From: a virus
DNA length: 64,000 nt
Reading direction: 5' to 3' (one strand)
Virus record (IMG/VR): IMGVR_UViG_3300033553_000478
Span: 1 to 64,000 of that record
The position numbers and the translations under genes are program-made. Shown here piece after piece: positions 24,698 to 55,623 of the stretch; the first letter of the stretch is position 1; every line of letters starts with the position of its first letter. The notes beneath the pieces are model-generated. The model did no database searches and had not been told where the DNA came from. It saw only the letters and a list, made by a program, of their open reading frames with translations.

Positions 24698-24948
24698 TAG
24701 ATAGATTTGTATTTAATTTTCTTATTTCCTTTAATGTGCTTGACAAAGTACCCGCTTGAGCTGGGTGCATCGTACATAGTTTTCCATTGTCCTGCAGATA
24801 CAGGAATATAACTGTAAACACTATCATTCGTTTTGAAATGAACATATAATGTTTGTGCTGCAGGGTTGTAAACTACCTCTTCAATAAGAGAGCTTTCAGG
24901 TGTCTTTTTACGTGGCCAGTCAGGGTTCACGGGTACTTTATGGTCCAT
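24697..24948 (-). CDS. KTSC domain protein
   Basis: SSLIEEVVYNP..QTLYVHF...VYSY..V......APSSSGYFVKHIKG. Confidence 0.85.
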   Translation of the reverse strand: MDHKVPVNPDWPRKKTPESSLIEEVVYNPAAQTLYVHFKTNDSVYSYIPVSAGQWKTMYDAPSSSGYFVKHIKGNKKIKYKSI

Positions 24949-27814: not shown

Positions 27815-28273
27815 TTATTGGTTATAATTAAATTCAATAATAGTCCAATCATCAGCAATCATATCTGTCTGAGAAGCCAGCCAACCATTTACTATGGTGT
27901 TATCTGCAGCTTTCATGCAGATATAAGCTGTAACCTTTACCTCTGTTTCCTCGCTTCCGTGAACGAAAAACTCTTTCACTTTCCTTGGAATAGAAACAGC
28001 TCTTTCAACTATTGACATTGGAAGAGTATCTTCTGGCCGAATAAACAGGAACATATTTTTCCCATTCCATCCAGATCTTTTAACCATACAGCCATCTTTT
28101 AAAGCTGCAATAGCTTCACCGAAATTACCCCGGCCAAGGTGTAATGATCCGTAAGGACCAGGAGAAGCTTGAGAGTCTAAATGATCAATAGCTTCTTGAA
28201 CTAAATCAAGGGCGTTACCTCCATCGCCCGGAGATCTTAATGCGTGTCGAATGTCTAACAGTCTTTGTTTCAT
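27815..28273 (-). CDS. DUF2829 / Thoeris anti-defence Tad2-like protein
   Basis: NFGEAIAALKDG..VKRSGWNGKNMFL...GWLASQTDMIADDW. Confidence 0.85.
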   Translation of the reverse strand: MKQRLLDIRHALRSPGDGGNALDLVQEAIDHLDSQASPGPYGSLHLGRGNFGEAIAALKDGCMVKRSGWNGKNMFLFIRPEDTLPMSIVERAVSIPRKVKEFFVHGSEETEVKVTAYICMKAADNTIVNGWLASQTDMIADDWTIIEFNYNQ

Positions 28274-35208: not shown

Positions 35209-35484
35209 ATGGCAAATGAAGATAACAAGAAGCCTCTGAATATATCAGTGGCTTACATCACAAAGGAGCTCAAGAAAGACAACAGGATCTATCGCGGAGT
35301 TATGTATTACGGCGAAGATAATCGCCCCAAATATATGCGAGCAGTAGAATTCAAGACCGATGGCTACGGCCAATTCGTAAAGCATTGCTTCGATGAAGCA
35401 TTCAGGTTTGTAGGTGGAGAAGATAAATACTATCTCGGAACCTCAGACTTTCACAACATTGAAACCTTTAATCCCGGAACATAA
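35209..35484 (+). CDS. hypothetical protein
   Basis: ORF coupled to the radC-like gene. Confidence 0.5.
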   Translation: MANEDNKKPLNISVAYITKELKKDNRIYRGVMYYGEDNRPKYMRAVEFKTDGYGQFVKHCFDEAFRFVGGEDKYYLGTSDFHNIETFNPGT

Positions 35485-35936
35485 TGATCACTTACCAAAC
35501 ACCTTGTTACAAATTCAGGATTATAAAAGAGCCTAATATGAAAGCTGCAAGATGCAAAATACAAAGCTCTTCCTGCATTTCAGAATATATGAAGGCATAT
35601 CATTATGCCGATGATATCTCAGTATATGAATCCTTCTGGATCATACTTCTGAATAACGCGAATAATACAATGGGATCCCATTTAATCTCAAGCGGTTCAA
35701 TAACAGGATGCCTGGTGGATATAAGACTTATAGCGAAATATGCGCTGGAAGTTCTGGCCACCTCAATCATTCTGGTGCACAATCACCCAAGTGGTAATTT
35801 GCACCCCAGTGAAGCTGACAAGCAAATCACCAAGAAAATAATGACTGGTCTCGAAAATTTAGACATAAAAGTTCTGGACCACATCATTGTAACTGATGAA
35901 AGCTATTTCAGCTTTGCAGATGAAGGCTTACTTTAG
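35484..35936 (+). CDS. radC: RadC-like JAB/MPN domain protein
   Basis: ESFWIILLN, ILVHNHPSGNLHPSEAD, VLDHIIV, YFSFADEGLL. Confidence 0.92.
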   Translation: MITYQTPCYKFRIIKEPNMKAARCKIQSSSCISEYMKAYHYADDISVYESFWIILLNNANNTMGSHLISSGSITGCLVDIRLIAKYALEVLATSIILVHNHPSGNLHPSEADKQITKKIMTGLENLDIKVLDHIIVTDESYFSFADEGLL

Positions 35937-37033: not shown

Positions 37034-37375
37034 ATGGTTTACCAATTCACAGTACACGGCAATCTACCAAAAGGTAGTGCGTGTCCTCAGCACGAAATGT
37101 TCACTCTTTACGGAAAGCTGTTAAAGGGTGACAAGATATCCAGTCACGATAAGCAATATATAGCTGATCACCTCTGGGGAACCTTTGGCGCAAACTCCAG
37201 TACATATAGACTCGGTGGTTTCGCAGCACATTTTTCCGAAGTTCTTCCAAGGATCCTTGTAAAACAACATGGAGATTGGAGAGAATATGTAGCTCCAAAT
37301 AAATCAACATTAAGAAATGCCCTATATGGCCACATCGATGAGATGCACTATGTAGGCAAAATCCAAGCAGTATGA
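37034..37375 (+). CDS. hypothetical protein
   Basis: ORF with likely ATG at 37034. Confidence 0.5.
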   Translation: MVYQFTVHGNLPKGSACPQHEMFTLYGKLLKGDKISSHDKQYIADHLWGTFGANSSTYRLGGFAAHFSEVLPRILVKQHGDWREYVAPNKSTLRNALYGHIDEMHYVGKIQAV

Positions 37376-37782
37376 AATACTTACAAGATTATATGGACAA
37401 TAAACAATCAGCTTTGTTTCAGGAGTCCTCAGCGTTCTTTGCTTTTAGCAATGAACAATTAAAAGAAGGACTTCAAAAGTTCGATTTGAAAGACACGAAA
37501 GCCATTGTCTCAATGGGAGCTGGCTTATATGTCAAGCGTGAAAATGCAAAATCATTATCTGAAGGATTAGATAAAATCTGGAATGATGCTGTTGCACAGG
37601 ATATCGCTGATCACGGACTTGAAAGAATTATTCTTAGAGAGCTTGGCAATCACGAAGCCTGGTATACCGGTGACACCGAATCTACTTGGGATGCCCTTGA
37701 GGGATATCCCGGGATTAAGAGAGAGTACGTCGATAAATTACATCGTAACCGTAACTACAAAATCCCAACAGATGAGCAGTAA
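37372..37782 (+). CDS. conserved phage/plasmid early protein (FFAFSNEQ...ELGNHE family)
   Basis: Motifs AFFAFSNEQLKEG, MGAGLY and RELGNHEA. Confidence 0.55.
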   Translation: MKYLQDYMDNKQSALFQESSAFFAFSNEQLKEGLQKFDLKDTKAIVSMGAGLYVKRENAKSLSEGLDKIWNDAVAQDIADHGLERIILRELGNHEAWYTGDTESTWDALEGYPGIKREYVDKLHRNRNYKIPTDEQ

Positions 37783-38680: not shown

Positions 38681-41287
38681 ATGTCTAATATTGCTGAAAA
38701 AGTACAGCTTTTGTTTGATGTCGGAGAATTTGAGGTGAAACCCCCTAAGCCCGTAGTTCCTATTCCTAAGATGGAAATAGTAACCAGTGTTCCCTACATA
38801 GAGGTGGACATTGGTAACATCAGGCAAATGCTCCCAAAACTCTACGATCATCAGCAACAGGATGTGCTGAAAATAGAGAAACGATTTCAAGTAGGAAAAG
38901 GATATCTGTGTACCAACGGTACTGGTACAGGAAAAACATTCGTTGGACTCGGAACAGTTAAACGGTTCTGGGCAAAAGGATGTAGAAATATTCTTATTGT
39001 TACTCCTACTGAAACGAAGTGTGGTGACTGGATTGATGAAGGCAAGCACGTTAACCTGAAGCTTTATAAGCTGGAAGGTGTAAACGACAAAGGCCACAAT
39101 ATCCGCGTCACAACGTATGCTAACTATTATCAGAACGATGAGTTAGATACGGTTATATGGGATCTCGTAGTCTACGATGAATCTCATTACCTCAACCAAA
39201 ACTCCAAAGGAAATGAAACTGCTTATTTAACCAAGCATAAATTCATTACCAATCTGCCCTCTTCTGTAAAGAACAGAGCTGGAGATATTGTTGGTGATAA
39301 ACCCAAGTATGAACTTGGGAATGATTACGAACTATATCAATGGCAGCTCGATGCCTGGAGGAATCAAATGCGGACTTACATATTTGATACAGTCGGCAAG
39401 ACCAAAGTGTTATTCCTTTCAGCTACTCCATTCGCTTACCATAAATCAATCAAGTATGCGGATGGCTGTTTGTTCGATATCACAGAGTGTATAGAGGAAC
39501 AGGAAAACCCGAGATCTGGTTATTATAATGAACCATCTCCCTGGGAGAAGTTTATGATGGAGCATTTCGGTTACCGAATGAAACATAATAAGCTGACCAT
39601 TCCAGAAACAGGAGTAGATCAAAACCTTTTAGAACGTGCGTTCTTTGAGAACCACGTTCAAAAGGGTGTAATGTCAACCAAAATATTGGAATTGGATTAC
39701 GATTACTCCCGCGACTTCTTCCTTGTAGATAGTGAGCTTGGTCACTTCATAAACTCAGGAATTGAGATGTGGTGGAATAAGGATGTTTACGAGAAATATC
39801 CTCTTATGGCTAAAGTGGTACCGAAGAAATACCGGTACCTCTACATCAATCAACTTCTGGAAGCTATTAAAGCTAAGGAGATACTTGACAGGATCCAGCA
39901 ACATCTGGACCTTGGCCGCAAGGTTGTAATCTTTCATAGTTACAATCACGCTACCGTAGAGCATCCCTTCAGGTTCAATGAAGATAAGCTTACTACAGCA
40001 GACGAAGAATGGTGGAGATCTGACCTTCGGGATGAGATACAGAAATGGTATCAGCAATTCCCGCAGTATGCAAACCTCAGCTTAAAAGGATTGAATAACT
40101 GCAGGGCTACAATCCGTGAACGCTTTCCGGATGCATTAGAATTCAATGGTACCATATCCAAGAAAAAGAAGAAGCAAAATATTGAGCTCTTCAATGATGA
40201 TAACTCCGGATATGATATAATCATTGTTCAATCTAAGGCTGGCCGTGAGGGGATATCCCTTCACGACAATAAAGGTGGCAAGCCAAGGGTATTGATCAAT
40301 CAATCATTACCAGTGGCACCAACTGAAGCTATCCAAACTGAAGGTAGAATCTACCGAAGTGGTTTGCAGAGTAACGCGATGTTTGAATATCCTGTTATTC
40401 ACACAAGCTTTGAAATGGTAGCTTTCGCAACCACGATAGCATCAAGAGCCAAGACTGCAGAAAACCTGGCAATGGGCAATTACGCCCGAGATCTGGAAAC
40501 TGCATTCAAGGAAGGCTATATGAATGCGACAATTGAAGCTCCAAGCTTGGAGCAAGGAGTTGGCGGTAAAGAGAGTGATCGTAAGCTTCTGGAAATATCT
40601 GAGTTCGACAAAGCCAAAACATATTACTGGTCCAGAGCGAAAAAGAATTCCAAGAATAAGGCAGCTGAAGGAGTTGACTACTTCGCTACGCCTGAGCCGT
40701 TAGGTATGAAGATGGTAGAGTGGTTGGATCCACAACCAGACGAGCACGGTTTAGAACCTTCGGTTGGTCACGGAGCAATCGGAAGATGGTTCCCCGGATT
40801 TAGCAACAATGTATTCGTTGAGCCAAGTTTAAAGCTATTCGGAGAAATGGCAATAAACTGTACAGGCCGTCACGAGAATGTCACCTTTGAAGAATTTAAA
40901 ATAATAAACAAAGCTGACTTCATTGCAATGAATCCACCATTCGGACACCAGGGCAGGACTGCTATTGAGCATATTCAAAAAGCTCTGATACATATGAATC
41001 AGAGATCGATGAAAGGCGCAAGACTTCTGGCCATTATTCCTAATGGTCCAGCTATGGAAAAGAAACTTGATATCCTTATGGAGCATAAAATATTCAATAG
41101 CTTCAGGTATACAGGTGAGATCTTACTCCCAGAGGTTACTTTCAAGAGAGCCGGTACCGGTGTAATGTGTAGGATTATTAAAATCGAGCACGTCAACACA
41201 GGTAACGAGCAATTCAGGAGAATTGACTTATCACGTTGCTCAACTATCGAAGAGTTCTTCGACGAGATTGAGCATTTAAATTTCTAA
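38681..41287 (+). CDS. SF2 helicase - N6-adenine methyltransferase fusion (DarB/strawberry-notch-like)
   Basis: Helicase motifs GTGTGKT, DESH, LSAT, EGISL, QTEGRIYR; MTase motifs FATP, LEPSVGHG, NPPF. Confidence 0.85.
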   Translation: MSNIAEKVQLLFDVGEFEVKPPKPVVPIPKMEIVTSVPYIEVDIGNIRQMLPKLYDHQQQDVLKIEKRFQVGKGYLCTNGTGTGKTFVGLGTVKRFWAKGCRNILIVTPTETKCGDWIDEGKHVNLKLYKLEGVNDKGHNIRVTTYANYYQNDELDTVIWDLVVYDESHYLNQNSKGNETAYLTKHKFITNLPSSVKNRAGDIVGDKPKYELGNDYELYQWQLDAWRNQMRTYIFDTVGKTKVLFLSATPFAYHKSIKYADGCLFDITECIEEQENPRSGYYNEPSPWEKFMMEHFGYRMKHNKLTIPETGVDQNLLERAFFENHVQKGVMSTKILELDYDYSRDFFLVDSELGHFINSGIEMWWNKDVYEKYPLMAKVVPKKYRYLYINQLLEAIKAKEILDRIQQHLDLGRKVVIFHSYNHATVEHPFRFNEDKLTTADEEWWRSDLRDEIQKWYQQFPQYANLSLKGLNNCRATIRERFPDALEFNGTISKKKKKQNIELFNDDNSGYDIIIVQSKAGREGISLHDNKGGKPRVLINQSLPVAPTEAIQTEGRIYRSGLQSNAMFEYPVIHTSFEMVAFATTIASRAKTAENLAMGNYARDLETAFKEGYMNATIEAPSLEQGVGGKESDRKLLEISEFDKAKTYYWSRAKKNSKNKAAEGVDYFATPEPLGMKMVEWLDPQPDEHGLEPSVGHGAIGRWFPGFSNNVFVEPSLKLFGEMAINCTGRHENVTFEEFKIINKADFIAMNPPFGHQGRTAIEHIQKALIHMNQRSMKGARLLAIIPNGPAMEKKLDILMEHKIFNSFRYTGEILLPEVTFKRAGTGVMCRIIKIEHVNTGNEQFRRIDLSRCSTIEEFFDEIEHLNF

Positions 41288-41288
41288 A

Positions 41289-41576
41289 ATGAGAAATAGA
41301 GAAAAGGACAGCATCAACTGGTTAATGAATCAGGAAGATGCCAGAGCCCTTATTCAGGTAATTAATCCAAGGGATTTTACTATTATCGAAGCGGTAACAC
41401 TTCACGTTGGAGCCGTAGATCAAGAGGAAGTAATTTCCGAAACCAGTGAAATGGTTCAATGGAAAAGAGAAGAAGCCGAACAAAAGCTTCGTATCTGGAT
41501 CAATAAAGTGAATGATATTCACGGTCATAAAGTTGGAGAGAAATACATATACTTCCGATTTAAAAAATGGAACTAA
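41289..41576 (+). CDS. hypothetical protein
   Basis: ORF in operon. Confidence 0.5.
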   Translation: MRNREKDSINWLMNQEDARALIQVINPRDFTIIEAVTLHVGAVDQEEVISETSEMVQWKREEAEQKLRIWINKVNDIHGHKVGEKYIYFRFKKWN

Positions 41577-41821
41577 TGAAAAAAATAATCTTAGTGCTAT
41601 TCATAGTAATTAGCTGTGCTTGGCAAACTCCGGATTTAAGTAAAGCCTGGCAATCAGGTTACATTGTTGGATGGTGTTACCACCAAGAGTATTGCATTGA
41701 GCCAATACCACCAGTGGCACCAATCCCGCGGATACAGGACACAACATATAAAATGATGTACAACCGCGGGTTTATAACAGGACTCAAAGCTTATGAAAAG
41801 CAAAGAACAGGTAGAAAATAA
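41576..41821 (+). CDS. putative lipoprotein
   Basis: MKKIILVLFIVISC signal/lipobox-like N-terminus. Confidence 0.5.
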   Translation: MKKIILVLFIVISCAWQTPDLSKAWQSGYIVGWCYHQEYCIEPIPPVAPIPRIQDTTYKMMYNRGFITGLKAYEKQRTGRK

Positions 41822-41962
41822 GATCGCCATTCTAAAATCAGAACTTGAAACCCTTGACGCTATTGCGGCCAAGGGTTTTTCATTTCCTGCAGACAGGAAA
41901 CATAATGTAGAGCAGCGCCAAGTTAGGCAAGCTCTTATTGTTGGACTTAAATGGGTATTAAA

Positions 41963-42193
41963 ATGAGCAATACAATTGAATGGCACGATGCCTACGACAA
42001 AAATTCCAAGGCTGAACAAGAACGCCTGGAGAGAGAGGAAAGAGATCGTAAGGAATACGATGAAAACCTCGATAGAGCAAAAGACGAAATGTGGGATGCT
42101 CTTGGAACAGATGATTTCAGAACTTCAGATTTTGATGATATCTGTTCAAATTACGGTATAGATCCTGACGATCTAATTGACGAATTAATTTAA
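41963..42193 (+). CDS. small, highly acidic protein
   Basis: D/E-rich helical sequence. Confidence 0.55.
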   Translation: MSNTIEWHDAYDKNSKAEQERLEREERDRKEYDENLDRAKDEMWDALGTDDFRTSDFDDICSNYGIDPDDLIDELI

Positions 42194-42197
42194 AGCT

Positions 42198-42488
42198 ATG
42201 ATTAAATTTGAAGAGCTCCGACCGGAGCTGGTAGAAATCCTCAAAGAAAACAGTATTGAGGAAAAGGATCTGGAGAATAACTATTCAGATCTATACATTG
42301 GCTGCAGTTCTTTTGACCAGGCTGGAAAAATAAGATCTAAAATTCCGAAGCACGCAGCCCTAACAAGTACCTTCTTTCCGCAGGAAGGTAGCAGTATGGA
42401 CCACCACAAAATATGTGTAGAGGTGGCATTCGGCTATATGGATGGGTACTTTGATAAAAAATATGGAAAGCGCAATAAATCCACTTAG
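42198..42488 (+). CDS. hypothetical protein
   Basis: Contains NYSDLY. Confidence 0.5.
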   Translation: MIKFEELRPELVEILKENSIEEKDLENNYSDLYIGCSSFDQAGKIRSKIPKHAALTSTFFPQEGSSMDHHKICVEVAFGYMDGYFDKKYGKRNKST

Positions 42489-42493
42489 AATGT

Positions 42494-42501
42494 TATATTT
42501 G
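42494..42501 (+). promoter_or_regulatory. Bacteroidota -7 element heading the PRTRC-dnaB operon
   Basis: TATATTTG just upstream of ATG 42511. Confidence 0.6.
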
Positions 42502-42510
42502 TAACTTCTT

Positions 42511-42735
42511 ATGGAAGAAAATGAGAAGCCTACCAGAATTTATCTGGTAGATGGAAAACGAGTTGCGATAATCAAGTCAAACACACATACATATAATGTG
42601 CGCTTTGTCAAGTCTGGAATATTTATGGAAGTGTATAAAAAATATGTGATTAGTTGGTTTCCAAAACCCACTAAAAAATCTTCCACACCTATTCCCAAGA
42701 AACCAAAAAATTCACAAACCTCGCTGGACTTTTAG
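42511..42735 (+). CDS. small beta-barrel (SH3/Tudor-like) protein ending QTSLDF
   Basis: Alternating beta pattern RVAIIK..TYNVRF..G....V. Confidence 0.4.
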   Translation: MEENEKPTRIYLVDGKRVAIIKSNTHTYNVRFVKSGIFMEVYKKYVISWFPKPTKKSSTPIPKKPKNSQTSLDF

Positions 42736-42756
42736 TCCGGCATAATACAATTCAAT

Positions 42757-44709
42757 ATGGAACAAATGACCAAAGAGCAGTATATGGAAATGCTTAACTG
42801 GGATCAATCCCTTTACAAAATCATATCTGGTGAGGAAGCCGAACCTTTGTTAAAAATCGGTGGCCACCAGAATTATGTTTATGCTGTTTCGCCTAAAGGT
42901 GAGAAAGCATTTGGTAAAGGATCCAAGGTTGTCAAGATTGATTGGGCAGAAAAGCATTCAGCCCCAGCCGTAGAGCAAACTCCTGCTGCAGCAATTCCAC
43001 CGCCACCGGCAAACATACCACCCGCCCCGGCCGCTGCAAGCATACCACCTCCACCAGCTACGGAAGCTGCTATTCCACCGCCTCCGGCACAGGAAGAAAA
43101 GCCAGTAGAAGATAACTCCGTTTATGAATTGAGATTGGCGCAGCTGAAATCAATTGGATGGAATCAGGTAAGTGATAATGTCCTTGAACGTAAAGACGGT
43201 AAGAGGGTAAGTAATGATTACCTGAAGATGATGAATGATGATGCATTTATGGATCTTATGAAAGCTCCCCTGGAAACTCCTAAAGAGGAACCAGTGAAGG
43301 AAGAAGTTAAACAGGCTGAGCCTGCTTGGGAACCATACATAAAAACCCGAGTGGCTAATTTAATTAGCCAAGGCTGGAAAGCCGATCAGAACGGCAATTC
43401 CGTTGTTATTTCCCCTGAAGGGAAATACTACGGATTTATGGAGATAGGTGAGCTCAGCAATAAAGATTACACCGATCTTATCAAAAAGCCGGAAGTTCCT
43501 GCAGAGATCAAAGAGATCGCAGATGCCTCTCCGAATGTGCATATAGTTACTATGCCTAAGGATGATGAACCTACGGCTGAAGATATCGCGAAAGAGAAAG
43601 CTAATAAGCTTTTACAAATTCGCAGAATTGCACTTTCAGCACTTGGTTTTACCAATGCTCCTGGAGCTGCTATGTGGCAATCTGATATCAATCACAACGT
43701 GAGCGATAAAGAAGTGATCGCAATGGGAGAAGATGAATTCAAAGACTTCCTGAAACTTATGGATGGTAAAATAGTTACCGTCAAAGCTCAGAAAGCCAGT
43801 GAAGATCGTCAGGCCAAAAATGAAGAAATCCGGAAGCAGAAAGAAGCTGAACAGTCTAATCCTGATGTAGGAGTTGAAATAGCAAATGAAGCTGCTGAGG
43901 TTGCCGAGAAGTCAATAAATGAAATGGCAAATGAAACCGAAGGTATGTCAGCTGTAGAATTGGATGAACACGATGTTCGTAAACTTGCTATTGAGCAAGC
44001 TCAGAAACGTGATGATGCCGAGATCGATAAGTATGAGGCTGAGAAGAAAATGGATGAATTGATGGAGAAGCTTCAAAAAGAGAATGATGCTCACAAGGAG
44101 CAATTCGAGAAATGGAAGCAAGATCTCATTGCTGAAACTGAAGCGGAGAAAAAGAAAATCCGTGAAGAGTATCAGCAAAAAGAATCTCCAATGACCACCG
44201 GAGATGCTGGTGGCTTCTTCGGTTTGCTTGCAGAGCTGGGTTTTGGGCAGCTGAATTTATCAGTGACAAAGTTGGAAAGCAATAAGTTCAGCGTTATCGT
44301 GAAGCCTCAAAACTTCTCAGGCGATCCAGCGTTGGATGAAATTCGTCCAATGACTTTAAGCGGTTCTCCTGCAGAATTAGATGAAGGTTTCTTCGCTGCT
44401 ATCAGCCAGCCATTACAGAAAGTCCACGGTGTTATGAGTAACGCCCAGGCTGTGATCGCTGATCTGGAAGAGAAAGCCAAGAAAACCAAGGCTGCAGAGG
44501 AAGAGAAAAAGAAAGTCACCAAAGCTGTAGAAAAAGCTAAGAAGCATCATGATGATAAAGATTTTGATGCAAAAAGTGATGCCTCTCTGAAAACTGCAAA
44601 GAAGAATTGGGATGCTGTACTGGCATTGGATCCTGGTAATAAGGATGCAAAGGCCGGACTTGATAAGCTGGAGAAGCAAATCAAGGAGAATGCTGAAACT
44701 CTTCTTTAA
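42757..44709 (+). CDS. PRTRC system protein E domain fused to a long repeat and proline-rich N-terminal region
   Basis: C-terminal FF..L...LNLSV...SVIV...GDPA...PMTLSGSPAELDEGFF..I..P matches Bacteroidota PRTRC-E. Confidence 0.8.
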   Translation: MEQMTKEQYMEMLNWDQSLYKIISGEEAEPLLKIGGHQNYVYAVSPKGEKAFGKGSKVVKIDWAEKHSAPAVEQTPAAAIPPPPANIPPAPAAASIPPPPATEAAIPPPPAQEEKPVEDNSVYELRLAQLKSIGWNQVSDNVLERKDGKRVSNDYLKMMNDDAFMDLMKAPLETPKEEPVKEEVKQAEPAWEPYIKTRVANLISQGWKADQNGNSVVISPEGKYYGFMEIGELSNKDYTDLIKKPEVPAEIKEIADASPNVHIVTMPKDDEPTAEDIAKEKANKLLQIRRIALSALGFTNAPGAAMWQSDINHNVSDKEVIAMGEDEFKDFLKLMDGKIVTVKAQKASEDRQAKNEEIRKQKEAEQSNPDVGVEIANEAAEVAEKSINEMANETEGMSAVELDEHDVRKLAIEQAQKRDDAEIDKYEAEKKMDELMEKLQKENDAHKEQFEKWKQDLIAETEAEKKKIREEYQQKESPMTTGDAGGFFGLLAELGFGQLNLSVTKLESNKFSVIVKPQNFSGDPALDEIRPMTLSGSPAELDEGFFAAISQPLQKVHGVMSNAQAVIADLEEKAKKTKAAEEEKKKVTKAVEKAKKHHDDKDFDAKSDASLKTAKKNWDAVLALDPGNKDAKAGLDKLEKQIKENAETLL

Positions 44710-44873
44710 TGCTGGTATTAAAAGGCATTATCGTAGAGCAAAAGATCGAGTTCGGTAGGGGAGAGTCCAGAAACTTCTCCCCTGTCCTCGATACTTTAGA
44801 GAAAACTTATGAGCTGTCCGAAGAATTCAGACCGCACATTGGAAGAAAAATGACAATTATAATACAAGATTAA
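44709..44873 (+). CDS. small protein (54 aa) inside the PRTRC operon
   Basis: Read from the sequence; TAATG-coupled to PRTRC-E; stop lies 1 nt before the Ubl ATG. Confidence 0.45.
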   Translation: MLVLKGIIVEQKIEFGRGESRNFSPVLDTLEKTYELSEEFRPHIGRKMTIIIQD

Positions 44874-44874
44874 T

Positions 44875-45081
44875 ATGGCTTTAGAAACCGCAGAATTAAA
44901 GAGAGTATTCAAACACAAAGATGTTGAATTGGAAGATGTACCAGGTGCATCTTTGAAGGAAGTTTCAAAGATCTATTCAGGTGTATATCCTGAATTACTC
45001 AATACGATGCCTACATATAAGGATATCGTTGATGGAGTAGAGATTTATGAGTTCAATGCCAAAGTTGGCCTGAAAGGTTAA
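44875..45081 (+). CDS. PRTRC system protein C (prokaryotic ubiquitin-like)
   Basis: LKRVF...LED.....EV...YS..YPEL.....YEF..KVGLKG; ends in Gly. Confidence 0.9.
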   Translation: MALETAELKRVFKHKDVELEDVPGASLKEVSKIYSGVYPELLNTMPTYKDIVDGVEIYEFNAKVGLKG

Positions 45082-45083
45082 TT

Positions 45084-45278
45084 ATGTCATTTCTCAAAAA
45101 GTTCAGAGAATTATCAAAAGAGTCCGATTGGGGTAACCCCATCGGACTTTTAAATGATGAACAATCCAGAGAGTTATGCGAAGTAATAATAAGAAATCAG
45201 CAGAAAAAAGTCCAAAGCCAAAGCCGGCAGAAACGAGTAGATCCTACACAAATATCACGGAATATCTTTCTCACTTAG
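45084..45278 (+). CDS. small hypothetical protein of the PRTRC cassette
   Basis: 64 aa directly after the Ubl gene. Confidence 0.45.
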   Translation: MSFLKKFRELSKESDWGNPIGLLNDEQSRELCEVIIRNQQKKVQSQSRQKRVDPTQISRNIFLT

Positions 45279-46339
45279 CGCCAATACATCATTATAGTAA
45301 GCTTGAGGTAATGGAGCAATTCGAGCCATTTAATTTCAATGGCATATCGAAAGAAGATTTTGAAAAGTTCCTCGAGAAGTTTGATGTAATGCTAAAGAAC
45401 AGTGGCTACGATCTGGATGATGATATAGAGAATATAGACTGCTTCAGTGACTTCTACAAATATCTTGGGCAATTCGCAAATAAGCTGAATTGTCATTATG
45501 ATATTGAGTATGAAGAATTGATGAGGTTCACTGGTGATTTACCTATTCAAGAAACAAACATTCAATCTATAAATACATATTGGGTTGAGAAGCTGATAGA
45601 TATTTTACCGCCAGACATAGCGCTGTATTTGGATTACACTTGTTTTGTAATCCTTCAGAGAGCTACCAAAGTTATGCATTATGATTACCACCTTGCGGAA
45701 GAACCTCTGGAGTATAAGTACGATGAAGAGGAAGAATATGCCGATCAAATACAGATGTGGCATAAGCTTAATAGTTACACTATTGTCCTGTACAAGAAGT
45801 TTATCAAGGACAAAAAAACCATAGTTTCACCTTGCCCGGTTATGAAAGGCAGGCCAGAGAAGGAGCAGCAAATAATTAAGATCTGCAAGTTCCTGGTGAA
45901 TCATAATGAATATATGGCACTTCAATTTATGCCGGTAAAATTCTACTTGCAGTGTTGCGGAGAGTCGCATGACGAAGATAGTGAGGAAATGAGCCATATA
46001 GCTACACAGCTTATTGATGGCGACGGAGAGTATGCCGTAGATGCATATTACAATGCTTATTACGTGCTGACTTATGATAACGGGAACAGCTCATTAATAG
46101 ATGATTATTGTGAGTTCCTGAACCAGGCATATCAAATGAATGAATGGTACCACGAAATGAGCAAGATTGTCAAGGTCAATCACAAGAATGAATTTATTCC
46201 TGTAAACAAGAAAGCCGCCAGAACAGTTGTAAAATATCACGACTCATTTGGCGATTTAAACGAACTTTTAAAAGCATATTACGATGAGAGAGTTGGTGCA
46301 AACAATGAAGCCTGTATCGCTGTTGACAGTGTACGATAG
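45176..46339 (+). CDS. PRTRC-associated protein (protein F position)
   Basis: Acidic 387-aa ORF between Ubl and E2; assigned from synteny only. Confidence 0.5.
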   Translation: MRSNNKKSAEKSPKPKPAETSRSYTNITEYLSHLAPIHHYSKLEVMEQFEPFNFNGISKEDFEKFLEKFDVMLKNSGYDLDDDIENIDCFSDFYKYLGQFANKLNCHYDIEYEELMRFTGDLPIQETNIQSINTYWVEKLIDILPPDIALYLDYTCFVILQRATKVMHYDYHLAEEPLEYKYDEEEEYADQIQMWHKLNSYTIVLYKKFIKDKKTIVSPCPVMKGRPEKEQQIIKICKFLVNHNEYMALQFMPVKFYLQCCGESHDEDSEEMSHIATQLIDGDGEYAVDAYYNAYYVLTYDNGNSSLIDDYCEFLNQAYQMNEWYHEMSKIVKVNHKNEFIPVNKKAARTVVKYHDSFGDLNELLKAYYDERVGANNEACIAVDSVR

Positions 46340-46907
46340 TGGCTATATAGATTACCGAGATGTATTGGAAGCGGGAAAGGTTTCAGCTTCCAGACCATTA
46401 TACCAGGAAACCATAAATGATATTTTCGCAAATCTGAGAGGTGATCATAACCTTAAAAGATTTGAAGGTGTCATTCCAAACAAAATGGTTTATGTGGATC
46501 CAATGAGAGATCTATTTGTCTGGACCAGAAAAGCGGAAGTCCGGGAACTTCTACATACAACAAAGAAACATTCCGGAAAATATGCTATTCCTACTCTTGT
46601 ATTTCGCATTGAGAAGGGCAGTGTGAGTGTTGTGGCCATAAAGAAATTGGCTATCAATTCTCCTGTATATATTCCCCCGTTTACAAACACAGCAAATGGC
46701 GATGTTTGTATGGGTTCCGCTTCTCTGAAAACCGAGACTTGCGACTGCATTGAAGATCTGGTTGAATATGCCGAAAACCAATTCTACAATTCCTATTTCA
46801 CTCATTCCCCGACTGAGTACCAGCTTTTGGGAAAAGGTAAATCTACCTTCCCCAAAAAGGAACTGAAGGCAATGGGTATTAACCTAAAGCAATTTATAAA
46901 TGGATAG
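46284..46907 (+). CDS. PRTRC system protein B (prokaryotic E2 family D)
   Basis: GVIP..M, FVW, IPTLVF, PFTNTANGDVCMGS (candidate catalytic Cys), FYNSYFTH. Confidence 0.85.
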   Translation: MRELVQTMKPVSLLTVYDSGYIDYRDVLEAGKVSASRPLYQETINDIFANLRGDHNLKRFEGVIPNKMVYVDPMRDLFVWTRKAEVRELLHTTKKHSGKYAIPTLVFRIEKGSVSVVAIKKLAINSPVYIPPFTNTANGDVCMGSASLKTETCDCIEDLVEYAENQFYNSYFTHSPTEYQLLGKGKSTFPKKELKAMGINLKQFING

Positions 46908-47682
46908 CTTGAAAGTTGATCCGTATTTAATAAACGGACAGCACAGAATAACTGTGCTCGTAGTGGGAGCTGGTGGAACTGGTGGAAAGGTACTTACCAA
47001 GCTTATAGCTTTACACGAAGCTTTGACAAGAATGGACCATCCTGGTCTATACGTTACAATGGTGGATCCTGACATAGTAGAGGATCACAATGTAGGCCGG
47101 CAATCAAATTTCAGTGCTGCAGATGTAGGCTACTACAAAGCTGATGCGCTGATTAGCAAAGTGAATGCCGCTTTCGGATATGATTGGGATTGTGAGAATG
47201 TACCATATAGCAATGCTCACGCTGCCAACATAGTATTTTCCTGTGTAGATAATGCTGAAGCCAGAGCCAAAATATTGGATGCATTTTTCAAAAGGCAGCA
47301 GATGTATGATACCAGGAAAGGCTTTTACATATTTGATTGCGGTAACGCCCGGGATTATGGCCAAGTCATTCTGACTGACCAGAAGCACACCCTGAAGCAT
47401 ATTGGTGATATTGTCCCGGATTGGGATAAGCAAGATACTGTAGAGCAGCAGGGAGAATCCTGTAGCTATGCTGAAAGCTTACGAAAGCAAGACCTATTCA
47501 TTAATGATTGGGTTGCTCTGTATGCAGTGAATCTCTTCAAAGAATTACTATTCAAAAAGGAGATTGATTACCAAGGAGTATTTTTCAATACTGCAGATTT
47601 TGATGCAGTTAAAATCAAGATTAACAATGGCAGTAAGAAACGGAGAAAGACTCGTAACAAATTGGTGGACCGAAAAAACTGA
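46900..47682 (+). CDS. PRTRC system ThiF/E1-like activating enzyme
   Basis: VVGAGGTGG, DPDIVEDHNVGRQ, SCVDN, DCGN..GQV, SCS.AESL..QDLFIN. Confidence 0.9.
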   Translation: MDSLKVDPYLINGQHRITVLVVGAGGTGGKVLTKLIALHEALTRMDHPGLYVTMVDPDIVEDHNVGRQSNFSAADVGYYKADALISKVNAAFGYDWDCENVPYSNAHAANIVFSCVDNAEARAKILDAFFKRQQMYDTRKGFYIFDCGNARDYGQVILTDQKHTLKHIGDIVPDWDKQDTVEQQGESCSYAESLRKQDLFINDWVALYAVNLFKELLFKKEIDYQGVFFNTADFDAVKIKINNGSKKRRKTRNKLVDRKN

Positions 47683-47836
47683 TTTGATCAATCCTGAAAT
47701 ATATGATAGGATTGATGGGAATGCAAGACGTAGAATTTATACAAGAATAGCCAAAGGAGAGTCCTTTGGAAATGAAACAGATGAAATCGATGGCTTTAAA
47801 TACGAATGCCATTGGTCTATTAGAAAATCGTAAACA

Positions 47837-48091
47837 ATGGCTGAAACATTGGAAGATTTGAAGAAGCTTAAACAAGAATATGTTGAAGCTGAGGCTCAGA
47901 AGATCGTTGATTATATGGTCAAAAGAGAGCTGATTGAAACTCAGGAACAAACTTGTGATCATAGAAATTGGGATACGAAGAAACATACTCACTTCCCCGA
48001 GATAGCTGAAAGACTTAGGAAAGAATATGGGTTGCTGGTACTCAGCAAAGTTCGCCACGGCGTAACTGAATGGGATATAAGAATTAGATAA
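47837..48091 (+). CDS. hypothetical protein
   Basis: Coupled to dnaB. Confidence 0.5.
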   Translation: MAETLEDLKKLKQEYVEAEAQKIVDYMVKRELIETQEQTCDHRNWDTKKHTHFPEIAERLRKEYGLLVLSKVRHGVTEWDIRIR

Positions 48092-49545
48092 TGGATGCAG
48101 AAAATGAGGAATTTCAAATACCGCCACCACCGGTAGATATTCCTAAACCCCCACTTCCGGAAATAATATATCGGAAGGATCCTGAATATCCACCGCTTGA
48201 CAAAGGCAAAATACCGCCTCAAGCGGTAGACTTAGAGGAAGTGGTAATTGGAGCTCTTATGATTGACAAGCGGGCAGCGCCCGAGATAATGGGGTTTATG
48301 ACTCCAGATGTTTTCTATAAGAATGCACACCAAAATGCTTTTCAAGCCATACAGACCTTGTACGAGAAGGAATTACCCATCGACTTACTTACAGTCGTTG
48401 AGGAACTAAGACGTACAGGGAAGCTTGCTATTGTAGGTGGAGAGTATTATTTGATACAGCTTACTCAAAAGGTAAGTTCTGCAGCTCATATAGAATTTCA
48501 TTCTCGAATTATTTTACAGAAGTATGTACTTCGTAGAATGATACAGCTGGGAAATGTAGTCATTGAAGAAGCTTACAATCAAGATCCGGACATATTCGAT
48601 CTGATGGATAAGTTTGAAAATGATGTGCTGGATATTTCCAATACTGCCCAGAAAGGCAAAAAGGAATCCGGCCCTGCAGATCCTGGAGAGGAACTTCGAG
48701 AAAAGGTTAGACTTAAGAGAGAAGGAAAGACAATTGGATATCCTTCGGGAATTGAAGAGTTCGATAATTGGGCGGGTGGCTTCCTGAAAAGGTGGCTTTT
48801 CATATTGGGAGCCCGACCAGGTATGGGAAAGACTTCATTCATTGTTGCAGTCATATATCACTTAGCTTTCGAGAGAGGTGTAAAGGTTGCATTCTTTTCC
48901 CTTGAAATGGCAGCTATCGATATTAAGTATCGATTAGCTGCCAGGATCCTCGATATTCCATTCAGTAGAATAAATCTTGGAGAGCTCACAGATGAAGAAC
49001 TTGAAGAGGTAACTGAGATAGTATCAAAAATTGAGGACTATGGAATCAACATAATTGACAACGTAAGGAACCTCAGCAAGATTACTGTTGAAACCAAGAA
49101 GCTGAAAGAAGAAGGTTTTGAAATCTTCTTTTTGGATTATTTACAGCTGGTAGAGATATCCGGAACTTCCAAGGATTTAACTGGAGAGATGGTGATCATT
49201 ACCAGAACATTCAAATCACTTAAAAACGATTTAAACATTCCGTTCATTGCGCTATCACAGATTGACAGAATAGTGGATAAGCGGCCCGGTCATAGACCAT
49301 TAATTTCAGATCTTAAACAGGCAAGTTCTATAGAGCAGGATGCTGATATAGTAGCTTTCATTGTGAGGCCAGAGTATTATAATGAGAATAAAAGCAAGAT
49401 ACCTTTGCCACCAGGCAAACCGAATCCTGAATTTATTGCTCAGTTTATTATTGCAAAAGGAAGGAGTACCGGACTGAAAGATTTTGATATATATCTGGAT
49501 CTTTCAAAATTTATTTTGAAATCTGGTCATTCAGTACCTTTTTAA
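48091..49545 (+). CDS. dnaB: replicative DNA helicase DnaB
   Basis: GKIPPQAVDLEE N-domain, GARPGMGKT, FSLEM, DYLQL, ALSQ, SIEQDAD. Confidence 0.95.
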   Translation: MDAENEEFQIPPPPVDIPKPPLPEIIYRKDPEYPPLDKGKIPPQAVDLEEVVIGALMIDKRAAPEIMGFMTPDVFYKNAHQNAFQAIQTLYEKELPIDLLTVVEELRRTGKLAIVGGEYYLIQLTQKVSSAAHIEFHSRIILQKYVLRRMIQLGNVVIEEAYNQDPDIFDLMDKFENDVLDISNTAQKGKKESGPADPGEELREKVRLKREGKTIGYPSGIEEFDNWAGGFLKRWLFILGARPGMGKTSFIVAVIYHLAFERGVKVAFFSLEMAAIDIKYRLAARILDIPFSRINLGELTDEELEEVTEIVSKIEDYGINIIDNVRNLSKITVETKKLKEEGFEIFFLDYLQLVEISGTSKDLTGEMVIITRTFKSLKNDLNIPFIALSQIDRIVDKRPGHRPLISDLKQASSIEQDADIVAFIVRPEYYNENKSKIPLPPGKPNPEFIAQFIIAKGRSTGLKDFDIYLDLSKFILKSGHSVPF

Positions 49546-49548
49546 TTT

Positions 49549-49556
49549 TATATTTG
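49549..49556 (+). promoter_or_regulatory. Bacteroidota -7 element upstream of the HU-SSB operon
   Basis: TATATTTG in the intergenic gap. Confidence 0.6.
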
Positions 49557-49589
49557 TTAACGATAAATACATCTACAAAGTATAAAATT

Positions 49590-49877
49590 ATGGTCAAAAA
49601 ACAATTAGTATCTGAAGTCGCAAAGCAATCAGGTGTTAGTAAAAAGGACACTGCCCTGGTCATTGATACAATGATCGAAACAATTAAGAGGCAATTATTG
49701 ATTGGAGTGAATGTCAAAATAACTGACTTCATAGACTTCAAGAGAGAAATTTCCCCGGAGAGAAAAGGCTTCAACCCGAACACTAAGGAAGAAATAATCA
49801 TTCCTAAAAAGTGGAGGGTGAAGGTTACTCTTCCGAAAGCTTTCGTTGAAAAGATTAAGGCAAAACCTATTCACTAA
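49590..49877 (+). CDS. HU/IHF-like DNA-binding protein
   Basis: MVKKQLVSEVAKQSGVSKKD...RKGFNPNTKEEIIIP. Confidence 0.9.
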   Translation: MVKKQLVSEVAKQSGVSKKDTALVIDTMIETIKRQLLIGVNVKITDFIDFKREISPERKGFNPNTKEEIIIPKKWRVKVTLPKAFVEKIKAKPIH

Positions 49878-54452: not shown

Positions 54453-54712
54453 TGGAGCAAGCGGAATTCAGAATGTTAGATGCATACAAGATCTTTCCTT
54501 TCTATCCGGATAGAGTTTTACTCTCGCCTCTTTATGATGATTTCAGTGGCAAATATGCTATGATGATCAATGAGATGCTTCCGAGTGGTAGACCAGGACA
54601 AACATTATTCGCTACCACAAAAGCCGTATTTGATAATGAAGAACAGGCAGTATTTTCAACATCGAAAATGCTGAAAATGACAATGCAAGTTGTAAAAATA
54701 TCTATGAACTAA
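54452..54712 (+). CDS. hypothetical protein
   Basis: Coupled ORF. Confidence 0.5.
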   Translation: MEQAEFRMLDAYKIFPFYPDRVLLSPLYDDFSGKYAMMINEMLPSGRPGQTLFATTKAVFDNEEQAVFSTSKMLKMTMQVVKISMN

Positions 54713-55623
54713 TGGAATTAGATTTTGAAAAATATGGACAGCAGTTAACCGTCCTGTCCTTTGGAGCAGGACAGGACAGTACCGCAATACTTGTGCGTAT
54801 AATTGAAGATGCTCGCTTTAAAAGAGATTATGTGGTAGGTCAACTTATAGTTGTATTTGCCGATACCAAGAATGAGCACGCTCATACCTATGCTTATATC
54901 AGCTACATAAAGATGATTTGCAAGGTGGCTAAAATACCATTCGTTGTGGTAGAGCCTGAGAAGTGGGCAGGAGGAAAATGGAAGCAAGGTCTGGTTGGGT
55001 TCTGGAAGCAAAATAAAGCTGTAGGATCCAAAGCCTTTCCAAAAACCTGTACTGATCAATTAAAGATTAGGCCAATTTATAAGTGGCTGGAAGAGTTCAT
55101 TCATATCACTTTTGAAACCAAGAGTGTTGGGAAGAAGAAAGCTTTTTACGAGTACTTCTATAAATATGGAAAAGTTCGCGTACTGATCGGTATAGCATCC
55201 GGAGAGGAAAGCAGAGCTTCAAATGAACCTACCGGAATGAAATGGTTCGATGAGTGTGTTGAGAAGATCTACCCACTTATAGAGCAGAAAATGGATAGGG
55301 AAGCTTGTCAGCAGACAATTAACGCGTATGGGTATGTAGTGCCGAAACCGTCAAATTGTATGTTCTGCCCATTCCTATCGCTTCAGGAGTTACTTTATTT
55401 ATCAATGAAGGATCCCGGAGCATTTTTAGAATGGGTTGAAATAGAAGCTGAGAAGCTGAAAAACAATGAGCATAAAGGAGAAAAGAATCTTACAGTCTGG
55501 GGAACCAGAAAGACTCTTCCTGAAATGCGTGAGATAGCAATGGAAAAATATGGCCATTGGACTATGGAACAATTAGAAGAATATAAAATGTCACATGGAC
55601 ATTGTGTAAAAAGTAAATACTAA
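54712..55623 (+). CDS. PAPS-reductase/PP-loop family protein with Cys cluster
   Basis: LSFGAGQDS, FADTKNE, CTDQLKIRP, YPL, SNCMFCPF. Confidence 0.85.
   Translation: MELDFEKYGQQLTVLSFGAGQDSTAILVRIIEDARFKRDYVVGQLIVVFADTKNEHAHTYAYISYIKMICKVAKIPFVVVEPEKWAGGKWKQGLVGFWKQNKAVGSKAFPKTCTDQLKIRPIYKWLEEFIHITFETKSVGKKKAFYEYFYKYGKVRVLIGIASGEESRASNEPTGMKWFDECVEKIYPLIEQKMDREACQQTINAYGYVVPKPSNCMFCPFLSLQELLYLSMKDPGAFLEWVEIEAEKLKNNEHKGEKNLTVWGTRKTLPEMREIAMEKYGHWTMEQLEEYKMSHGHCVKSKY

Follow-up and report, generated by a model that had tools for sequence, protein, structure and literature searches.

The 64,000-nucleotide stretch of viral DNA analysed here, referred to below as the window, is the first 64 kb of the 82,833-bp virus record IMGVR_UViG_3300033553_000478. 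Between positions 42757 and 47682 of its plus strand it carries five main open reading frames (ORFs) and two small ORFs that together resemble a PRTRC cassette, a set of genes for the conjugation of a ubiquitin-like protein (Ubl). Our preferred reading, held with moderate confidence, is that these genes form an intact Ubl conjugation module of the PRTRC type, otherwise catalogued as operon type 6d, in the form found in Bacteroidota, that the module has been vertically inherited, and that it acts most likely at the replisome.

The PRTRC/6d family has been catalogued since 2006. In the available portion of a November 2024 preprint, three bacterial operon families are described as experimentally shown; type II CBASS and type I and II Bil are named, PRTRC is not, and the Ubl conjugation systems so named are host-encoded anti-phage defences (PMC11601603). 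The window holds a complete-looking E1/E2/Ubl set that is carried and conserved by phages, within their replication modules. Prophage PRTRC cassettes have appeared in print (PMC13366799; bioRxiv 10.64898/2026.10.01.756045). A literature search whose scope left subscription journals and bioRxiv supplements outside yielded no description of PRTRC/6d genes in crAss-like phages, the group to which the phage of this record appears to be distantly related.

Genes and conserved residues of the cassette

Four of the five main genes are named by Pfam or NCBIfam hidden Markov models (HMMs), and all five lie on the plus strand. The cassette begins with a 650-aa PRTRC_E-family protein (42757..44709), residues 486-644 of which match PF19556 (3.9e-23, 82.5 bits, cut-off 26) and which also scores 43.9 bits with TIGR03741 (1.9e-11, cut-off 37.95). 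It is followed by a 68-aa Ubl of the PRTRC protein C or Prok_Ub type (44875..45081; PF14454 2.4e-11; TIGR03738 47.1 bits, cut-off 45.95). Further downstream are a 207-aa E2-like protein of the Prok-E2_D, or PRTRC protein B, type (46284..46907; PF14460 8e-17, 61.9 bits, cut-off 25) and a 260-aa E1-like adenylating enzyme, PRTRC ThiF (46900..47682), whose residues 6-239 match TIGR03736 at 1.1e-55 (188.6 bits, cut-off 144.75). The exception is the 387-aa protein at 45176..46339, which we place as F by its position in the operon and by a profile-profile link described below. An original prediction, made from the letters of the window, had named five PRTRC-type genes leading into dnaB and had proposed HMM searches with the PRTRC TIGRFAMs, Prok_Ub, Prok-E2_D and ThiF. 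All of these ORFs are present, E, C and ThiF exceed their cut-offs, and Prok-E2_D is matched. PHROGs holds no family for any of the five proteins, and the cassette DNA finds no nucleotide-level match among 50,697 phage records.

The genes are as tightly packed as had been claimed, with overlaps of 1 nt between E and a 54-aa ORF, 56 nt between F and E2, and 8 nt between E2 and E1. Because E2 and E1 overlap, there is no room between them for a protein A gene.

Each motif quoted in the original prediction (KVGLKG, NxxxGxVCMG, GAGGTGG, NVGRQ and SCS) is found in the translations. The E1 has a GAGGTGG nucleotide loop, NVGRQ, Cys188 within SCS and a basic C-terminal tail, and neither Cys188 nor the ATP-site residues vary among the 23 sequences compared. 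The candidate catalytic residue of the E2 is Cys142, in NTANGDVCMG, with His174 downstream; all 103 sequences compared have Cys142 and Asn135, and 94 of them retain His174. When the E1 family profile was compared with PDB sequences, the best matches were eukaryotic E1s (NEDD8 E1 at 5.9e-8, UBA6, UBA1, UBA5 and SAE2), ahead of both Cap2 and ThiF, and the E2 family profile, built from 38 homologues, returned no PDB match at E<=1. Judged from its sequence, the gene set is intact and complete-looking, with conserved Ubl, E1 and E2 hallmarks.

If these proteins follow the chemistry of the E1/E2 family, the E1 would adenylate the free C-terminal Gly68 of the Ubl, the Ubl would form a thioester first with E1 Cys188 and then with E2 Cys142, and it would finally be joined to a lysine of a target. 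The fast-evolving E and the F-position protein might serve as adaptor or specificity subunits. The proposal that this phage runs a Ubl conjugation pathway of its own is a reasonable one, given a complete-looking set with its key residues in place. The conserved KG end predicts that trypsin would leave a single-Gly remnant on modified lysines.

The residues just described also invite another use. If the pair worked in the manner of ThiF/ThiS or TtuC/TtuB, a Ubl thiocarboxylate would feed a sulfur-inserting enzyme for nucleic-acid modification, with a PAPS-reductase-like PP-loop protein at 54712-55623 as the possible acceptor. The terminal Gly is of the kind that sulfur carriers use, the E1 also matches ThiF and MoeB models weakly, and this PF01507 protein is encoded 7 kb downstream. 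Even so, we regard a sulfur carrier as improbable. Alongside the E1, 77 of 80 related IMG/VR loci encode an E2-like protein whose Cys is invariant, PAPS_reduct is found in 0 of the 137 proteins that flank 17 related loci, and the best PDB matches of the E1 profile are protein-conjugating E1s of eukaryotes, which come ahead of ThiF. The PP-loop gene itself lies on the plus strand and matches PF01507 at 3.2e-5 as well as phrog_424.

The last residues of the E1 form a strongly basic tail (residues 242-260, NGSKKRRKTRNKLVDRKN, positions 47623-47682). Similar K/R-rich tails occur in the relatives P0002, P0007 and P0016, but not in most others, and the tail may be one that binds nucleic acid.

The Ubl terminus and the five-gene form

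The Ubl of the window ends in NAKVGLKG directly before its stop codon. Its 87 homologues from loci that lack a JAB gene all terminate at the Gly as well (85 as KG, 2 as HG). In the two phage cassettes that do carry a JAB gene, those of Dina and of Burkholderia phage BgVeeders33, the PRTRC_C domain spans residues 3-67 and ends in GRKG or GTKG at residue 67, and a 62-residue extension follows. These patterns, the first seen in 87 of 87 and the second in 2 of 2 (a sample of two), fit the idea that JAB may mature a Ubl precursor. Since the Ubl of the window would be made already mature, a JAB processing peptidase would not be needed.

One gene of the JAB superfamily is found in the genome, a 150-aa RadC-like protein at 35484-35936 (plus strand; PF04002 7.1e-39, HNHPSG...SEAD), about 7 kb upstream of the cassette and with no visible link to it; the only match to the JAB model PF14464 in the genome, at 13.8 bits, falls inside this gene. 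Just 3 of 80 IMG/VR loci showed a RadC homologue close to the cassette, as did one metagenome locus, L088. We considered this protein as the missing peptidase and dropped it, because RadC is rare beside such cassettes and because the Ubl needs no processing.

A close point of comparison is the PRTRC system itself (TIGR03734-03742), as annotated in Dina (NC_055026) in the order E, C, F, B, A, ThiF. The order in the window is identical except that A is missing. BgVeeders33 has the same six genes as Dina, unannotated. In the window, as in PRTRC, E, C and ThiF score above curated cut-offs and the Ubl domain ends in KG. Unlike PRTRC, the window lacks protein A (JAB), ParB and protein D, its F has no match to TIGR03742, and its B scores below the cut-off. 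Its Ubl is made mature, whereas those of Dina and BgVeeders33 bear the 62-residue extension after the Gly, and its E has a 485-residue N-terminal extension. The carriers differ too, the window belonging to an 83-kb phage with no integrase, and cassettes of the Dina and BgVeeders33 type to temperate-type phages of about 35 kb or to a plasmid.

Operon type 6d was described by Iyer, Burroughs and Aravind (2006, Genome Biol 7:R60, PMC1779556). In the available part of that paper, which does not discuss phages for this type, the operon encodes an E1-like protein, a Ubl whose C-terminal Gly is conserved, an E2-like protein in which a conserved His follows the Cys, a JAB protein bearing a JAB-N domain and a 'rapidly diverging alpha-helical protein'. 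Measured against this description, the window has the Gly-ended Ubl, the E1-like protein and the E2 pattern (Cys142 in 103/103 sequences, His174 in 94/103), and its F-position protein, which has a mostly helical model and only three homologues, fits the rapidly diverging helical protein. It differs from 6d, as there described, in lacking JAB and JAB-N, and JAB is likewise absent from the 137 flanking proteins of 17 related loci.

The five-gene form proves to be common. An alignment-based scan of IMG/VR with the E1 found a relative on 281 contigs, the best 80 of which provide the IMG/VR locus statistics given throughout; a scan with the single E1 protein returned one pattern match and no confirmed relative. 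By phmmer, E2 accompanies E1 in 77 of the 80 loci, Ubl in 74, E in 58 and DnaB (within the flanks) in 14, while protein A or F of the Dina type is present in none. Typically, E (~200 aa) comes first, followed by C (69-73 aa), the F-position protein (~370-415 aa), E2 and ThiF. Among species-representative genomes at least 290 loci matched, and of the best 80, which we used, 78 bear Bacteroidota names, the remaining two being labelled 'Clostridium sp.' and simply 'bacterium'. Of the genome loci, 63 are at least 12 kb long; 46 of these have E-C-F-B-ThiF as a contiguous run, and none shows A. Pfam models applied to 137 flanking proteins from 17 loci named FEN, DnaN, DnaG, SNF2/DEAD helicases, VRR-NUC, RecT, NinG, SSB, methylases and integrase, and found neither JAB nor ParB. 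By these comparisons, the form without JAB and ParB is the ordinary one of Bacteroidota and of phages and not peculiar to this phage.

These counts bear on two earlier statements. The original prediction noted that PRTRC ParB, protein D and protein A were not seen, and this is borne out for the whole 82.8-kb genome, in which the PRTRC A, D, F and ParB models and the ParB_N domain have no match at E<=1 (ParB as TIGR03734 and PF02195, protein D as TIGR03739; for protein A, TIGR03735 gave no match in control genomes either). It went on to suggest that the cassette had been trimmed to its conjugation core. This step does not follow, because the five-gene form is usual both in the 80 IMG/VR contigs, none of which has A, and in 46 of 63 Bacteroidota loci, which argues against trimming specific to the phage. 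Second, PRTRC cassettes had been called typical of plasmids and integrative and conjugative elements (ICEs). They are not confined there, as the 281 IMG/VR contigs with an E1 relative and the published prophages attest. Of the 80 IMG/VR records, 50 entered a whole-record search, and the IMG/VR class of these is provirus for 19, terminal repeats for 2 and linear for 29. With the E1 as query, tblastn returned 8 phage records at E<=1e-3, and no crAss-like label is among them. Some of the 'viral' contigs may be integrative elements and not phages, because topoisomerase III replaces DnaN upstream of E in the IMG/VR loci L064 and L065, and an integrase, SSB and DUF932 lie upstream in L142, a Flavobacterium genome locus.

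Compared with the Bacteroidota-type five-gene cassette, the window has the same genes in the same order, a KG-ended Ubl and no JAB, and the F families are linked (hhalign, 88%). Its E1, on the other hand, shares at most 45% identity with the Bacteroidota-type E1s and falls in a separate phage-only clade, its F can hardly be recognised, and its E has neither the GSLF peptide nor the acidic tail; no dnaN adjoins the cassette.

The name of the family recalls a further possibility, that of a partition or maintenance module, which is how the 'ParB/ThiF partitioning cassette' of a Burkholderia gladioli prophage has been read; the available text of PMC13366799 states that the cassette is thought to act in segregation. 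For the window this is most improbable. The genome has no match at E<=1 to ParB_N, PRTRC ParB or tyrosine integrase, ParB is found in 0 of the 137 flanking proteins of related loci, and the Ubl/E1/E2 set itself holds no partition function.

The F-position protein remains the least recognisable member. It has no match in Pfam, NCBIfam, PHROG or PADLOC, and none to TIGR03742 at E<=0.1 (nor at E<=1 when all six reading frames of the genome were scanned); BLASTP against the F of Dina gives E 0.29. Only 3 homologues were found among 1.84 billion representatives, and a word-based homologue search recovered the query alone. With the counterpart from a syntenic metagenome contig, L084, identity is 24% over the full length. 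A five-sequence F profile, aligned by hhalign with the Bacteroidota-type F-position family of IMG/VR, nevertheless gives a probability of 88% (E 2.8e-6, 279 columns). That IMG/VR family is in turn only weakly linked to canonical F (probability 15%, 44 columns), and 0 of 30 F-position proteins scanned match TIGR03742 at E<=0.01. The AlphaFold model, from 39 sequences, is mostly helical (predicted local distance difference test, pLDDT, 74.9; predicted template modelling score, pTM, 0.73), and compared with PDB folds it yields no Foldseek match at E<=0.001 and a best VIA Z of 4.1. The ESM Atlas gave no usable match, its own model having a pLDDT of 0.37. The label 'F-like' in the original prediction is therefore sustained by position, by the profile link to the Bacteroidota F-position family and by the fit to the 2006 description of 6d, and not by demonstrable membership of TIGR03742. 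We regard the protein as a candidate specificity or E3-like subunit.

Two small ORFs accompany these genes. The 54-aa ORF between E and the Ubl (44709..44873, plus strand) is a candidate gene with no family match and no relative in related loci at E<=1; it is absent from L084, in which 23 nt separate E from the Ubl gene. The 64-aa ORF (45084..45278, plus strand) is read in a different frame from the F-position gene and shares about 100 nt with the beginning of that gene. It too has no family match and, apart from L084, no relative in related loci. In L084 an ORF of the same length in the same position is 38% identical (pairwise E 4e-8), and both end in NIFLT; comparison of the 64-aa ORF with the F-position profile gave nothing meaningful. 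This ORF may be a separate overlapping small gene, or an N-terminal piece of F joined by frameshifting.

Setting and inheritance in a phage lineage

The record, which IMG/VR classes as linear, has a CheckV completeness estimate of 100%. PHROG matches identify a portal, TerL, a major capsid protein-like protein, tail proteins and GroEL, and the replication and recombination genes comprise DnaB, HU, a Dda-like helicase, a FEN-type exonuclease and a fusion of SNF2 and methyltransferase. The cassette is embedded in a long block of co-directional plus-strand ORFs, at about 30.7-61.4 kb, and is located among the DNA-replication genes of the phage. Downstream of the E1, an 84-aa ORF (47837-48091) leads to the DnaB-type replicative helicase (48091..49545, plus strand; PF03796 3e-58, PF00772 8.8e-29, TIGR00665 7.1e-96). 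On the upstream side the nearest co-directional gene (42511-42735, plus strand) ends only 21 nt before the start of E. The cassette had been described as promoter-led, a description that this narrow gap disfavours, as does the number of sigma-70-like sites, 22 against 21.7 expected, in a scan that did not include Bacteroidota or phage-polymerase promoter models.

The identification of the phage as crAss-like holds in a looser sense than first stated. Phage genes are plainly present, and a comparison of TerL with 50,697 phage records gives crAss-like phages as the best matches, with identities of only 23-26% in the 20 listed of 30 matching records. In view of this TerL result, 'distantly related to crAss-like phages' appears a fair, informal label.

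Several observations indicate that the cassette is vertically inherited within a clade of such phages. Thirteen E1 homologues at 51-59% identity lie on contigs of up to 81.6 kb. One separate metagenome contig, L084, whose E1 is 51% identical to that of the window, has the order E(621)-Ubl(68)-64aa-F(372)-E2-E1-three small ORFs-DnaB-HU-99aa-354aa, with a Dda homologue further on, and the synteny extends to a counterpart of the 346-aa gene that lies between HU and Dda in the window. Three cassette-bearing IMG/VR records have related TerL proteins, at 47%, 42% and 28% identity. In a FastTree analysis of 212 distinct E1 sequences, rooted on Dina after duplicates and ORFs outside 215-300 aa had been dropped, the window falls in a clade of 14 (support 1.0) within a clade of 25 (support 0.95). 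This larger clade comprises viral and metagenomic sequences only, with no sequence from a bacterial genome, and it includes the three TerL-related records and L090, a locus that also has a crAss001_48-like gene.

A chimeric assembly, in which an ICE fragment has been joined to a phage contig, or a decaying passenger would account for the fact that, among named relatives of the cassette genes, the closest are annotated on bacterial chromosomes and plasmids. The evidence brings this alternative close to refuted. Mis-assembly is unlikely because the E1 belongs to a clade of purely phage and metagenomic sequences and because L084 is syntenic, as are the TerL-related IMG/VR records; all of the ORFs are intact with their catalytic residues kept, and guanine-cytosine (GC) content is uniform through the cassette region. 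Logan contigs from two runs of one study cover positions 41000-49600 with 0 differences and even depth, and bridge all gene junctions (42757, 44709-45084, 46284-46907 and 47682-48091). Because the two runs may be the source sample of the record, synteny argues more strongly against a chimera than these contigs do. The single RNA run of that study contained next to no sequence words of the cassette and no contig.

Protein E and possible roles at the replisome or in counter-defence

The conserved module of protein E is its C-terminal 165 aa, preceded by a lineage-specific extension of about 485 aa. The extension (residues 1-485, positions 42757-44211) has Pro-rich stretches of the IPPPPA type and K/E-rich stretches, and most relatives have an E of only ~200 aa. 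Between the window and L084 the E proteins are 42% identical over residues 485-650 and 33% identical over residues 4-68, and within the extension conservation is limited to the first ~65 residues. A model of residues 480-650 (pLDDT 83.2) shows a small alpha/beta head, a 60-residue helix and a helical hairpin. Against PDB folds this model gave no Foldseek match at E<=0.001 and a best VIA Z of 6.6, confined to the terminal helical hairpin.

An alignment of 45 E proteins shows the same plan, with a conserved head of ~75 residues, a long charged helix and a helical hairpin, and then a short peptide of consensus (E/Q)-G-S-(L/M)-F-G followed by an acidic or P/Q-rich tail. Under a permissive pattern, 107 of 116 distinct E proteins have a GSLF-type peptide, as compared with 24.8 +/- 4.1 in shuffled tails (maximum 39 in 200 shuffles). 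The consensus for binding the beta sliding clamp is QL(S/D)LF, which the E peptide resembles. Moreover, 29 of the 80 IMG/VR loci have a DnaN-like ORF on the strand of the cassette, in most cases immediately before E or shortly after E1. Of 16 upstream proteins tested, 11 were identified as DnaN by NCBIfam, 6 of them above the cut-off, and Pfam named DnaN in loci L008, L087 and L124.

We propose the replisome as the most likely site of action because the cassette always lies in replication or recombination modules and because most E proteins bear (E/Q)GSLFG, with an element-encoded DnaN alongside. In this phage the replisome in question would be that of the host. The 82.8-kb genome has no match to dnaN or to family A (PolA) or family B (PolB) DNA polymerases at E<=1, so the phage probably relies on the polymerase and clamp of its host, or has a polymerase of its own that is unrecognised.

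Several results weigh against this proposal or against the assignment on which it builds. The E2 scores only 56.3 bits with the PRTRC_B model TIGR03737, well below the cut-off of 131.45. Comparison of the F family with the canonical PRTRC_F alignment by hhalign reveals no link (probability 0.1%), and the chemistry of the E1 and Ubl could equally make a thiocarboxylate. The literature search described above found no biochemical or genetic test of any PRTRC member. DnaN adjacency is limited to about one third of the loci from IMG/VR, 2 of 28 from metagenomes and 6 of 80 from genomes, counts made with a DnaN profile built from 13 of the same loci. Finally, the strict motif is absent from the E proteins of the window and of L084, which end in ENAETLL (with LL aligned on the LF column) and SKLL, respectively, and neither does a dnaN gene adjoin the E of the window nor does the phage genome contain one. 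The clamp link is accordingly weak for this phage.

A more specific form of the proposal would make the cassette the counterpart, in phages and mobile elements, of PCNA ubiquitination and SUMOylation. Protein E would dock the Ubl, E1 and E2 on the beta sliding clamp, and the Ubl would be joined to the clamp or to host proteins bound to it. We think this unlikely as it stands, but if true it would mean that the host Pol III replisome is turned over to the DNA of the element, in this case by way of the host clamp. The correlation of JAB with the Ubl extension and the clamp-like peptide of E with its dnaN neighbours offer concrete, testable handles; for the window itself the limits are an uncultured phage and an E with no clear motif.

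The rate at which some of these proteins evolve is also compatible with a different target. The F of the window is only 24% identical to that of L084, whereas the E1s are 51% identical, and E likewise evolves very fast. Such divergence might be expected if the cassette serves counter-defence or host take-over, with the Ubl conjugated onto defence or other proteins of the host, or made in amounts that swamp host Ubl immunity such as Bil; the position in the replication module would then mean no more than that the cassette is expressed together with early and middle genes. Those bacterial Ubl systems that have been characterised act against phages, as far as the available text of PMC11601603 relates. 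According to the part of the text available, PRTRC protein B is a recurrent mutational hotspot in a Phocaeicola vulgatus prophage (bioRxiv 10.64898/2026.10.01.756045). The genome also encodes other proteins of anti-defence type, among them a Tad2-like (Thoeris anti-defence 2) domain protein (27815-28273, minus strand; PF11195 1.9e-22), which suggests that the phage carries counter-defence genes, and an 868-aa SNF2/ResIII helicase fused to a C-terminal methyltransferase-like region (38681-41287, plus strand). We rate counter-defence as possible, but hold it only tentatively. Among known defence and anti-defence proteins the sole match is a 22-bit one to the Rossmann region of Cap2-type E1-E2 proteins, the consistent neighbours of the cassette are replication and recombination genes, and the conserved clamp-like peptide and adjacent dnaN point elsewhere. 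Counter-defence is nevertheless compatible with the preferred reading.

The known defence systems provide a last comparison. As far as can be judged, the cassette would work like Bil (BilABCD), type II CBASS (Cap2/Cap3) and the other experimentally shown bacterial operons of this kind, in which a separate or fused E1 and E2 form thioesters with a Gly-ended protein. Of the cassette proteins, only the E1 matches the defence E1-E2 models of PADLOC-DB 2.0, through its Rossmann region (residues ~15-120) and at 12.9-22.3 bits, while the Ubl, E2, E and F have no match in PADLOC-DB 2.0 at E<=0.01. By this measure the cassette is not a member of the Bil or CBASS systems. Those are, on the same partial descriptions, host-encoded and directed against phages, whereas the cassette is encoded by a phage and lacks a deconjugating peptidase.

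The genome has some further features. The 868-aa SNF2 fusion matches the middle of very long PHROG profiles (phrog_10691, 5.9e-275), and a DUF7659 gene lies just 5' of it (37372-37782). A GroEL-type chaperonin is encoded by the phage on the minus strand (24948-26597; phrog_5725 6.7e-123). A 3901-aa ORF occupies positions 62131-73836 of the genome on the minus strand, partly beyond the window, and is known from its ORF coordinates alone. The last 30 nt of the record are repeated at about positions 110-139 of its start, and there is no exact terminal repeat from base 1.

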